Positions 51,777-53,111 of a DNA stretch of 64,000 nucleotides are shown here, piece by piece. The stretch is taken from positions 14,323 through 78,322 of the forward strand of contig CAYOCI010000001.1 in NCBI GenBank assembly GCA_964402415.1. Reading direction: 5' to 3'. Both the position numbers and the translations under genes were made by a program. A model generated the notes under the pieces. That model did no database searches. It saw only the letters and a list, made by a program, of their open reading frames with translations, and was not told the DNA's origin. Every line of letters begins with the position of its first letter. The stretch's first letter is position 1. This DNA comes from an uncultured Clostridia bacterium (GTDB lineage: Bacteria; Bacillota; JAAYKD01; CAYOCI01).

Positions 51777-53111
51777 TTATCCCAACTGGTGACTGATACC
51801 TGATGCCTGATGGCTCGTCGAAGCCGAGGGCTTCGACGCAATCACCACCCGCCCGATTCCGGCCAGATCCTTATGGATCTCAACGTCCTCATAGCCGCTG
51901 GCGGCAAACAGCGCTGCCACCTGTTCCGCTTGGTGATGCCCGACCTCAACGGCGAGCAGTCCGCCGGGGAGGAGATAATCTCCGGACCCAGCAGCTAGAC
52001 GGCGGTAGAAGTCGAGCCCATCCAGACCGCCATCCAGGGCGAGATGAGGTTCCGCCTGAACGTGGGCGTCAAGGGTAGGGATAACGGCGCGGGGGATGTA
52101 GGGTGGGTTGCTGACAATGGCGTGTAGCACTCCCGGTAATCTGGCATCTCTCAGCGGCGCCAGCAGGTCACCCAAGAGAAAGGTCACTCGATCAGCGACG
52201 CCGAGGTGGGCAGCATTTCCCTGAGCAACGGCGAGGGCCTCGGGCGAGATATCGACCGCGAAGATGTGACTGTCGGGCAGGTAATGGGCGAGGCTTAAGG
52301 CAATTGCGCCAGAACCCGTTCCGATATCGGCAAGCGATACCGGAATAGCCCCTCGCCCCTCGCCCCTCGCCCCTCGTGAGGGGACAGATGAGACGGGACC
52401 GGATGACGCAGGGCAACCTAGGTGCCTGTAGGGGCGCTGCTCTGCCGCGCCCGCGTCCCCCCGACAACCCTCGTCCTTACATGGTGGTTGGGTATCTGGG
52501 GGCGCTGATGGCATACGCTCTCTGCCCACGAGGGGCGAGGGGCGAGGGGCGAGGGGCGTCGGGTTGGTGATCTCGCTCATACGCGAGATCACCAACTCGA
52601 CCAACCCTTCCGTCTCTGGTCGCGGGATAAGCACAGCAGGAGTAACGTCGAAGTCCAGACCCATAAACTCCTGTTTGCCGATGATATACTGTGCAGGAAG
52701 ATTATGGACACGCTTATCTATATATTCATGATACCGATTTATCGCATCCTGCGCTACTGTATCTTGTTGATGAGCAAAAAAAGTAGCCCTGGAGATCCCC
52801 AGGGCCCGGCGCAAGAGCATCTCAGCGTCAAGGTTGGGGTGTGGTACCCCGGCAGTGTTAAGCTGGTGTTTCCCCCAGCGAAGAAGTAAGGCGACGCTGG
52901 GGAAATCACCAGCGGCCCCTCGCCCCTCGCCCCTCGCCCCTCGTTCGGGGGTAGGTGGGAGCTGGGATGACGGGATACCCGGGCGCTGCATGGCGGCGCC
53001 CCTACAGAACTGTGGACTGTGGACTGTGGACTCCCCCGCGTCTCCATATTCGCCGTCACCCACGAGGGGCGAGGGGCGAGGGGCGAGGGGCTCTCCTTTT
53101 CGCGTTTTCAT
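51777..53111 (-). CDS. prmC: peptide chain release factor N5-glutamine methyltransferase PrmC (HemK) with repeat-derived N-terminal and internal in-frame inserts
   Basis: HemK N-domain ([15 protein letters not shown]...[15 protein letters not shown]...LIPRPETE) and the methyltransferase motif ([10 protein letters not shown]...NPPY). ATG at 53111 overlaps the prfA stop (ATGA). Two inserts of about 70 aa each ([26 protein letters not shown]) are encoded by repeat elements. Confidence 0.7.
52916..53090. repeat. mosaic of CCCCTCG heptamer arrays, the GGGCGCTGCATGGCGGCGCCCCTAC palindromic element and CTGTGGA heptamers, translated as the N-terminus of prmC
   Basis: (CCCCTCG)x4 at about 52916-52945, the palindromic element at about 52983-53008, (CTGTGGA)x3 at about 53010-53035 and (CGAGGGG)x4 at about 53059-53090. 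Confidence 0.7.

Follow-up and report, generated by a model that had tools for sequence, protein, structure and literature searches.

How can a housekeeping gene carry hairpin-forming repeat DNA inside its reading frame and still encode its enzyme? The question is raised by prmC, the gene for a release-factor glutamine methyltransferase, in the genome of an uncultured Clostridia bacterium. We have analysed a stretch of 64,000 nucleotides from this genome (assembly GCA_964402415.1, contig CAYOCI010000001.1; called the window from here on), in which the prmC open reading frame (ORF) occupies positions 51777-53111 of the reverse strand. It encodes 444 amino acids, whereas the typical length of nearly all PrmC homologues is ~285-295. 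The answer that we consider likely, from the patterns of reading frame, stop codons and divergence described here, is that selfish hairpin DNA is tolerated in frame within a functional prmC, as three copies of a hairpin repeat that is non-coding and dispersed, and that it is translated together with the gene.

The prmC ORF begins where prfA ends. The latter gene (53108-54181, reverse strand) encodes peptide chain release factor 1, a protein of 357 aa with the Pfam domains PCRF and RF-1. A preliminary description of the locus had noted that the prmC start codon overlaps the prfA stop in an ATGA, and this is borne out: the ATG at 53111-53109 and the TGA at 53110-53108 share an overlap of 4 nt (53108-53111).

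The same description reported two repeat-encoded inserts of about 70 aa each and read the 5' codons of prmC as a mosaic of repeats. Two inserts do exist, but their sizes are 59 and 70 aa. The repeats at the 5' end are present too, not as a loose mosaic but as part of complete inverted-repeat hairpin elements that belong to a dispersed family. What had been missed is that the arrays pair into hairpins, and that there is a third element at the C-terminus. The general layout of these elements is two inverted arrays of ~4 tandem heptamers that form a stem of 24-40 bp around a core of 100-150 nt. Inserts 1 and 2 are both bounded by the inverted arrays (CCCCTCG)4 and (CGAGGGG)4, with stems of 30-40 bp, and their loops of 117-130 nt hold no ORF, and so no S23p gene. 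Tandem Repeats Finder (TRF) reports four perfect 4-unit heptamer arrays within prmC, and the window contains 25 CCCCTCG dimers where 0.06 would be expected.

Insert 1 (52915-53091, reverse strand) measures 177 nt, or 59 codons, and corresponds to aa 8-66. Its stem starts only 21 nt past the prmC start codon, its arms (53062-53091 and 52915-52944) are 30 nt long and 100% complementary, and the RNA is predicted to fold at -125 kcal/mol (z -5.9). Between two of the perfect arrays, in the loop, lies a further one of 3.4 units at 53009-53032, (TCCACAG)3.4 or, on the complementary strand, (CTGTGGA)3.4, with 100% matches in TRF. Insert 2 (52348-52557, reverse strand) measures 210 nt, or 70 codons, and corresponds to aa 186-255. 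It has arms of 40 nt with 90% complementarity (52348-52387 and 52518-52557) and a predicted folding energy of -147 kcal/mol (z -8.7). The in-frame peptide of the 5' arm is the same in both inserts, and so is that of the 3' arm. Each loop also carries one unit of ~29 nt that resembles a repetitive extragenic palindrome (REP), of the form TGTAGGGGCGCYGC-NNNG-CNGCGCCCG, in which a 5' GTAG precedes a G+C-rich palindrome. In insert 1 this unit, TGTAGGGGCGCCGCCATGCAGCGCCCGGG (52978-53006, reverse strand), is in the sense orientation and holds an in-frame ATG at codon 41; in insert 2 it is TGTAGGGGCGCTGCTCTGCCGCGCCCGCG (52427-52455, forward strand), antisense to prmC.

The third hairpin, at the 3' end of prmC (51624-51816, reverse strand), is degenerate. 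Its arms (51624-51647 and 51793-51816) are 24 nt long and 83% complementary, the 5' arm, which consists of CATCAGG-type heptamers, is read as ...SHQASGIS, and the loop of the hairpin holds the prmC stop codon (51777-51779).

Our comparison with relatives covered the 120 best PrmC homologues. An alignment of orthologues, proposed as a check in the preliminary description, singled out just one protein that shares the inserts. This is P0002 (411 aa), encoded at locus L001 of the metagenome-assembled genome (MAG) GCA_964540595.1; the other homologues are 279-352 aa long. Synteny is kept in L001 and its PrfA is 92% identical to that of the window, while named PrfA relatives are at most 68% identical. 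The L001 prmC carries inserts at both of the sites seen in the window. The C-terminal tail, i.e. the last ~12-17 residues that stem from the third hairpin, is missing in L001 and in the other homologues. Outside the REP, the cores of insert 2 are 66% identical between the window and L001, which is the best of all pairs; because the L001 insert 2 is thus the closest relative of the window insert 2, we take the latter to be inherited, and the common ancestor of the two species probably carried the prmC inserts already. Other lineages show unrelated length variation at the site of insert 2 (P0004 and P0015), which marks the site as a permissive one. Two longer metagenomic PrfA proteins, P0124 (481 aa) and P0125 (439 aa), were also considered as carriers of inserts and rejected; they contain an internal duplication of the RF-1 region and are probably chimeras of assembly or gene calling.

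The arms of insert 2 have a different history from the cores. Every unit differs between the two genomes, AGTCCCT in L001 against CGCCCCT in the window (CCCCTCG in the other phase), with two substitutions per unit, and the arms are self-complementary in each genome despite their differing sequence. The same switch, CGCCCCT against AGTCCCT, is found in a neighbouring pair of orthologous cassettes that enclose a gene for a 23S rRNA intervening sequence protein (IVP). At the synonymous divergence (dS) of about 0.8-1.2 between the window and L001, independent decay would be expected to destroy such stems; the arms would therefore seem to have been kept complementary by conversion, selection or turnover.

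The preliminary description also raised the possibility that prmC is a pseudogene with a functional copy elsewhere. Between the window and L001, the ratio of nonsynonymous to synonymous divergence (dN/dS) is 0.23 in the N-domain (aa 74-186) and 0.13 in the methyltransferase domain; in the inserts it reaches ~0.58. Both PrmC domains have therefore evolved under purifying selection, and the catalytic motifs are intact. The N-terminal helical domain with the first methyltransferase helix (aa 71-185; 52557-52901, reverse strand) matches Pfam PF17827 (PrmC_N; aa 76-145, 2.3e-18). The methyltransferase domain (aa 256-432; 51816-52346, reverse strand) matches a Pfam class I methyltransferase from about aa 259, and retains DIGTGSG and NPPY. 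In an alignment of 56 sequences, the motif I residues D262, G266 and G268 and the NPPY residues N335, P336, P337 and Y338 are invariant. These results argue that prmC is a functional release-factor glutamine methyltransferase gene. Its product is predicted to methylate the GGQ glutamine of RF1/RF2, a role for which the coupling to prfA offers context.

Structure prediction fits this picture. An AlphaFold model built on the same 56 sequences has a predicted local distance difference test score (pLDDT) of 94-98 across aa 71-185, with ~97 in PrmC_N, and of mostly 79-98 across aa 256-430, where most values exceed 90. The stretches aa 1-70 and aa 186-254 score 33-57 (33-46 in insert 1 and 37-57 in insert 2) and have essentially no secondary structure. 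The top Foldseek match of the model is Escherichia coli PrmC from the complex with release factor 1 (2b3t_A), with an E-value of 7.8e-24 and a target-normalised template modelling (TM) score of 0.94. Hence the fold is predicted to be the native one of two domains, with disordered inserts. The claim that insert 2 parts the N-domain from DIGTGSG also stands, and its position can be given more closely. It lies between the helix 167-182 and strand beta1, which carries DIGTGSG; when aligned with Thermotoga maritima HemK (1nv8), the insert falls between chain residues 118 and 126, in the loop before that strand, where ~73 of 81 query residues are additional. As had been stated, both inserts keep the reading frame, and the methyltransferase domain downstream of them is the strongly constrained one.

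A separate observation concerns the coding sequence of the N-domain. It contains a terminator-like hairpin at 52785-52806 (reverse strand), with a 9-bp stem followed by T7, which is nearly identical at the nucleotide level in L001 (6265-6300).

If the gene is functional, are the inserts actually translated? The distribution of stop codons indicates that the translatability of the intragenic elements is under selection and that in-frame stops have been purged. In seven of nine intergenic members of the hairpin family, none of the six frames is open. Every intragenic copy, in prmC as well as in the nearby sua5 gene, is open in the frame that is used, including one copy in which this is the only open frame of the six. 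The CCCCTCG/CGAGGGG arms of the window are perfect and free of stops in every frame. In the arrays of L001, (AGTCCCT)n and its complement contain a TAG every 7 nt, so that all three frames are hit. In the L001 arms that lie in coding sequence (prmC insert 2 and the sua5 insert), the in-frame TAG alone has been changed in all four cases, to TTG, CAG, CAG and TCG.

This evidence bears directly on the possibility that the inserts are present in the DNA and absent from the protein, either because ribosomes bypass them, as in T4 gene 60 and the byps of mitochondria, or because they are excised from the RNA and the ends are rejoined. Such a view draws on the strength of the hairpins, which have the architecture of the 23S rRNA intervening sequences (IVSs) excised by RNase III, and on the bypassing of GC-rich hairpin inserts in some yeast mitochondria. 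However, neither process would set any constraint on length or on stop codons, whereas the intragenic copies (two in prmC and two in sua5, in two species) are all in frame and stop-free while most intergenic ones are closed in six frames, and the lone in-frame TAG has been mutated away in each of the four arms. Also, no pathway is known that would ligate the RNase III products of bacterial mRNAs, the excision of IVSs leaves the rRNA in fragments, and no pair of take-off and landing codons is evident. We therefore judge bypassing or excision to be very unlikely; intein, intron and bypass readings were all set aside on the evidence of frame and stops.

Could the inserts instead be retained as adaptive protein modules, e.g. 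as Arg/Gly-rich tails that bind RNA or the ribosome? One peptide encoded by the window arms is indeed RG-rich, and the inserts have been retained in two species. Yet the orthologous arms of L001 encode unrelated peptides, SLVPSPLSLV and LGTRDQGLGT, the inserts evolve at a dN/dS of ~0.58 and are predicted to be disordered, and the same DNA is found in intergenic regions. Because the insert peptide is not conserved between the window and L001, a function at the protein level is improbable, and the prospects of the inserts being adaptive modules are slim indeed.

A further alternative is that the gene is decaying, or that the protein starts downstream, for example at M150, leaving the repeat-bearing 5' part untranslated. 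In fact, the public annotation of the window gene (P0001) is a protein of 295 aa that begins at M150 and leaves out the N-domain, and a very stable hairpin stands 21 nt past the start codon at 53111. Nevertheless, a start at M150 would keep insert 2 anyway, and the N-domain is modelled in its native arrangement with a pLDDT above 94. Since the N-domain evolves under purifying selection, translation of prmC must begin 5' of it. The choice of start codons there is small. We can confirm the earlier observation that no ATG, GTG or TTG lies between the repeats and the N-domain; none occurs from codon 41 to the start of that domain, and GTG17 and ATG41 both lie within insert 1. In the L001 orthologue, which is annotated at full length, codon 1 is the sole in-frame ATG, GTG or TTG 5' of the N-domain and overlaps the prfA stop as TGATG. 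These results support the earlier claim that the annotated start is real: the coupled start at 53111 is the one best supported by the sequences, and ATG41, in the loop and within the REP, may serve as a minor alternative in the window species. The P0001 call is too short, as it drops a conserved domain, and the repeat inserts have here misled the gene callers. The chance that the gene is decaying or starts downstream appears very slight.

Similarly slight is the chance that the arrays act as a phase-variation switch, in which the gain or loss of one 7-nt unit would shift the frame and turn PrmC on or off. The presence of five heptamer arrays inside the ORF invites the idea, and heptanucleotide repeats drive phase variation in Haemophilus. 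However, with only ~4 units apiece the arrays are short by the standard of contingency loci; arrays of this kind mostly lie between genes and pair as stems, the number of units is equal in both arms and in two independent assemblies, and prmC has a housekeeping function with no obvious gain from switching.

That the repeats were mis-joined into prmC during assembly has practically no chance of being right: short-read assemblies do break at the arrays, but either the junction or the inserts themselves recur in each of three independent assemblies, the frame is preserved and the insert cores are unique sequence. In particular, the prfA-ATGA-(CCCCTCG)4 junction is identical in an independent Logan short-read assembly (L024, run DRR182650), whose contig breaks exactly at the array; with inserts at both sites in the related MAG, this shows that the inserts are real and not an artefact of one assembly.

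We propose the following course of events for the tolerance of hairpin DNA in prmC. Copies of the element would have landed at permissive places, namely just after codon 7, in the surface loop that precedes beta1 in the Rossmann fold, and at the native stop codon, which one copy spans. Those that became fixed would have been frame-preserving and stop-free, either by chance or through later change, with lengths that are multiples of three. The ribosome would start at the prfA-coupled ATG and read straight through, adding disordered peptides of 59 and 70 aa plus a tail of ~17 aa; that the inserts are translated is what we infer from the purging of stops. The elements would then be selfish or neutral passengers rather than new protein modules, and kin of the IVP cassettes with identical heptamer arms. 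The copies in prmC would be older than the split from the nearest relative, with their arms since homogenised within each genome.

Some consequences may follow for expression and stability of the locus. Both stems are long perfect duplexes like those that RNase III cuts in IVSs, and G+C-rich stems of 30 bp would be expected to impede ribosomes and to be substrates of this enzyme, which would lower PrmC relative to PrfA. On a more tentative reading, with the odds against it, the stems would make the mRNA of prmC (and of sua5) an RNase III target and provide a built-in post-transcriptional throttle between prfA and prmC. The stems could also act as a 3' stabiliser of the prfA message, in the way that REPs stabilise messages in other operons. 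Moreover, the four near-identical arms in prmC would presumably offer substrates to deletion or inversion events (arm pairs I2, I5 and I23).

Several points weigh against this account. The passage of ribosomes through G+C-rich stems of 30-40 bp is an assumption drawn from sequence evolution, and how a prfA-coupled ribosome would pass two such stems, which should also attract RNase III, is a puzzle. Were the stems efficiently cut by RNase III, the mRNA would be destroyed and an adequate supply of PrmC would then be unexplained. The selection tests amount to one pairwise comparison between two genomes of the lineage, and the copy number of prmC was viewed within the 64-kb window. No direct repeats that would mark a target-site duplication are visible at the flanks of the elements, and none of the 54 ORFs of the window encodes a RAYT/Y1 transposase (RAYT, REP-associated tyrosine transposase) or any other transposase. 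Finally, the kinship between the ORF-less hairpins and the IVP cassettes is suggested by the arms, a short sub-terminal motif and proximity.

Where do the elements come from? The window contains ~12 heptamer-stem hairpins between 21 and 59 kb. Their arms are tandem heptamers, occasionally octamers, and most of them are intergenic. The heptamers in the arms include AGTCCCT, AGTCCAC, AGCCCAC, CATCAGG, AGTCATA, AATTAAG and CCCCTCG. Four long members of the family enclose a gene of the 23S_rRNA_IVP or S23p type (PF05635). The cassette nearest to prmC (55819-56366, forward strand) has CCCCTCG-type inverted arms and an IVP ORF at 55929-56282. On the reverse strand, a second cassette (27384-27996) combines inverted AGTCCAC arms with an ORF at 27493-27876, and a third (25686-26322) has inverted arms of the octamer AGTCACCA with an ORF at 25805-26170. 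In the fourth (42991-44179, reverse strand), the IVP gene at 43710-44144 lies within CATCAGG-type inverted arrays. The four genes lie within 31 kb and the repeat unit is different in each. The paralogous proteins are 48-67% identical. In L001, the cassette at 2784-3460 is orthologous to that at 55819-56366 and has AGTCCCT arms; the IVP proteins of this orthologous pair are 66% identical, compared with 92% for PrfA.

The short and the long forms have several features in common. In both genomes the prmC arms carry the heptamer of the nearest IVP cassette, CCCCTCG in the window and AGTCCCT in L001. A sub-terminal junction of array and GTGGG is common to short and long forms, and 13 sub-terminal bases are identical between one short element and an IVP cassette. 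Among the short elements, the cores of prmC inserts 1 and 2, of the L001 prmC insert 2 and of the L001 sua5 insert can be aligned from end to end, with a conserved block that consists of the REP and ~45 nt downstream. The idea that the short elements are deletion derivatives of the IVP cassettes was tried and rejected, as BLAST searches with the cores returned only the REP and the one 13-nt sub-terminal match. Heptamer units of the same type lie closer together than under permutation (mean nearest distance 4.0 kb against 6.8 kb, p = 0.011), while the number of adjacent units of the same type in the window does not reach significance (p = 0.44); the evidence that heptamer types cluster by region is thus suggestive only.

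The REP unit behaves as a module of its own. The 64-kb window contains eight exact copies (GTAGGGGCGCNGC...) and one near-exact copy with one mismatch. Four of these nine copies lie within prmC or sua5; one pair forms an inverted doublet (49419-49566) and the others are singlets. We also observed that the REP is inverted in place between orthologous inserts (52427-52455 and 52978-53006 in the window; 6029-6185 and 6506-6693 in L001), with the flanking core colinear, so that the unit in insert 2 of the window is flipped relative to its L001 counterpart. The exact motif GTAGGGGCGCYGCYNTGCNGCGCCCG occurs in 40 metagenome contigs (L025-L064) of 46-72% G+C, most of them without heptamer arrays; in some contigs (L033, L034, L039 and L056) inverted heptamer arrays adjoin the REP. 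From these occurrences, the REP and the heptamer arrays are separable modules, and the REP motif is not specific to this lineage. The scan of metagenomes for the REP pattern recovered no further relatives of the lineage.

The architecture of the IVP cassettes is shared more widely. All five IVP homologues sampled from other lineages (L065, 1411-1894; L066, 1445-1872; L067, 1462-1904; L068, 1469-1865; L070, 1412-1887) have inverted arrays of TAAG-containing units of ~7 nt on both sides. They come from named genomes of Bacteroidota (Flavihumibacter) and Planctomycetota as well as from MAGs, and the genes are wedged co-directionally between housekeeping genes, e.g. carA and carB, argC and argD, or a response regulator and a kinase. 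The architecture is thus found in 5/5 foreign cassettes, in 4/4 of the window and in 1/1 of L001. No description of heptamer-stem IVP cassettes outside rRNA, as a general cassette, was found in the literature that we searched. Rfam annotates no known RNA family and no rRNA anywhere in the window. The elements in prmC, which lie in mRNA coding sequence, do not share the location of the IVSs in 23S rRNA (helix 25/45). A broader reading, which we put forward as a tentative one with the odds against it, is that an S23p/IVP gene together with inverted heptamer arrays constitutes a widespread, undescribed class of selfish cassette. The 23S IVSs would be its best-known members, ORF-less derivatives would have invaded coding sequence in this lineage, and arms would be rewritten in concert throughout the elements of a chromosomal neighbourhood. 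As part of the same tentative reading, the concerted switch of arms may point to active copying or conversion, or to recognition of the heptamer by a cognate protein.

In-frame palindromic repeats in bacterial genes are already known, so that the phenomenon is not categorically new. The Rickettsia palindromic elements (RPEs) are inserted in frame into genes (Ogata et al. 2000 as reviewed in PMC10969869), and in-frame ERIC and BOX elements are also known (PMC10969869). Like RPEs, the elements described here are dispersed palindromic repeats of ~150-200 nt that lie in frame in unrelated housekeeping ORFs, to which they add, in this case probably, extra peptide at sites compatible with the fold while the host genes stay functional. 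Unlike RPEs, they occur in an unrelated lineage with a composition of 71-72% G+C; we class them as the same kind of element and not as members, an assignment made without sequence comparison to RPE families. Their stems are tandem heptamer arrays that vary between copies, while the sequence of an RPE is conserved per family, and the peptide, which is conserved within an RPE family, here varies along with the heptamer. A REP nested in the loop and long relatives with an S23p/IVP gene set them further apart.

Another parallel is offered by the IVSs of 23S rRNA in Coxiella burnetii and Leptospira (PMC4990558). The IVS of C. burnetii combines a stem of 28 bp with tandem heptamers and an S23p ORF, and RNase III cleaves it (PMC4990558). 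The likeness extends to the stem of ~28-30 bp with heptamers in the stem region, the selfish behaviour and, in the neighbouring long cassettes, a PF05635 gene in the loop. In contrast, the copies in prmC are without an ORF, lie in the coding region of an mRNA and must be read through rather than excised. With REP and REPIN elements, which are mobilised by RAYT transposases (PMC2817692, PMC3116915), they share a core of ~29 nt, TGTAGGGGCGCYGC...GCGCCCG, in which a 5' (T)GTAG precedes a G+C-rich imperfect palindrome, a format that fits the REP table of PMC2817692. They differ from REPs in that nearly half of the copies are intragenic, most copies are singlets nested in heptamer-stem hairpins and the window holds no RAYT.

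Two further comparisons can be made. Like MITEs (miniature transposable elements with inverted repeats), the elements are small, non-coding and present in multiple copies with terminal inverted repeats, and they possibly come from a longer ORF-bearing relative. Unlike MITEs, they show no visible target-site duplication, have variable tandem arrays as termini and no known transposase-encoding parent; the sole protein encoded by the long relatives is the IVP, which is a four-helix bundle and no transposase. The short tandemly repeated repetitive (STRR) heptamers of cyanobacteria are reportedly dispersed genome-wide, and a very small hairpin repeat is said to be preferentially nested in them. The dispersed tandem heptamers and the small hairpin repeat in a heptamer context are thus points of likeness, whereas phylum and heptamers are different, and the arrays of the window are systematically paired as inverted stems, with some in frame in genes.

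The novelty lies in the type of element, which combines IVS-type stems of heptamer arrays with a GTAG-REP nested inside, in the lineage of the host, in the concerted way in which the arms have switched and in the clean signature of stop purging. If the favoured account holds, prmC is a second clear case, outside Rickettsia, of hairpin selfish DNA that sits in a gene of an essential pathway and lives by translation. The signature of constraint that it leaves in the sequence is a very clean one: of the TAGs that recur along a periodic array, the in-frame one alone has been purged. The results would also tie the S23p/IVP four-helix-bundle genes and the rRNA IVSs to a broader set of heptamer-stem cassettes and their ORF-less derivatives, offering a concrete system for studying how IVSs move and what S23p does. 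There is a practical warning as well for annotators, since inserts of this type make gene callers truncate real genes, as in the 295-aa call, and break assemblies.

The second housekeeping gene of the window with in-frame repeats is sua5/tsaC2 (48903-50255, reverse strand), which encodes 450 aa. In-frame inserts are found at two sites in both species, and the (TCCACAG)n array (49181-49209 in the window) lies within the Sua5_C region of both. The Sua5/TsaC2 protein is ~100 aa beyond its usual length, and the REP doublet at 49419-49566 falls in the linker between its domains. At the site of this doublet, the L001 sua5 (8664-10085) has an AGTCCCT-armed hairpin. Between an amidohydrolase gene and sua5 there is a hairpin of A+T-rich heptamers of the GAGTTAA/AATTAAG type (50264-50403), and the same heptamer occurs in L001 at 8524-8646. 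Arrays of the A+T-rich heptamers GAGTTAA and AATTAAG also lie upstream of prfA, at 54204-54248.

Elsewhere in the window, the long ORF for UDP-GlcNAc 2-epimerase (40498-41871) starts within a GCCCACA-armed hairpin (41671-41900), and its Pfam domain does not begin until aa 96. Translation probably starts further downstream, and the hairpin would then be likely to belong to the 5' untranslated region rather than to the coding sequence. In the V/A-type ATPase operon (30724-39651; subunits D, B, A, F, C, E, K and I), heptamer hairpins and REPs lie between genes at 35932-36114 and 36819-37002. Positions 1-21400 hold a dense cluster of genes for polysaccharide biosynthesis (MurJ, UDP-glucose dehydrogenase, glycosyltransferases, Wzy, Wzz and a tyrosine-kinase-like ATPase) that, unlike the remaining window, is essentially without heptamer arrays or REPs. 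The genome also encodes SpoIIID and SpoIID, as in a sporulating, Bacillota-like lineage.

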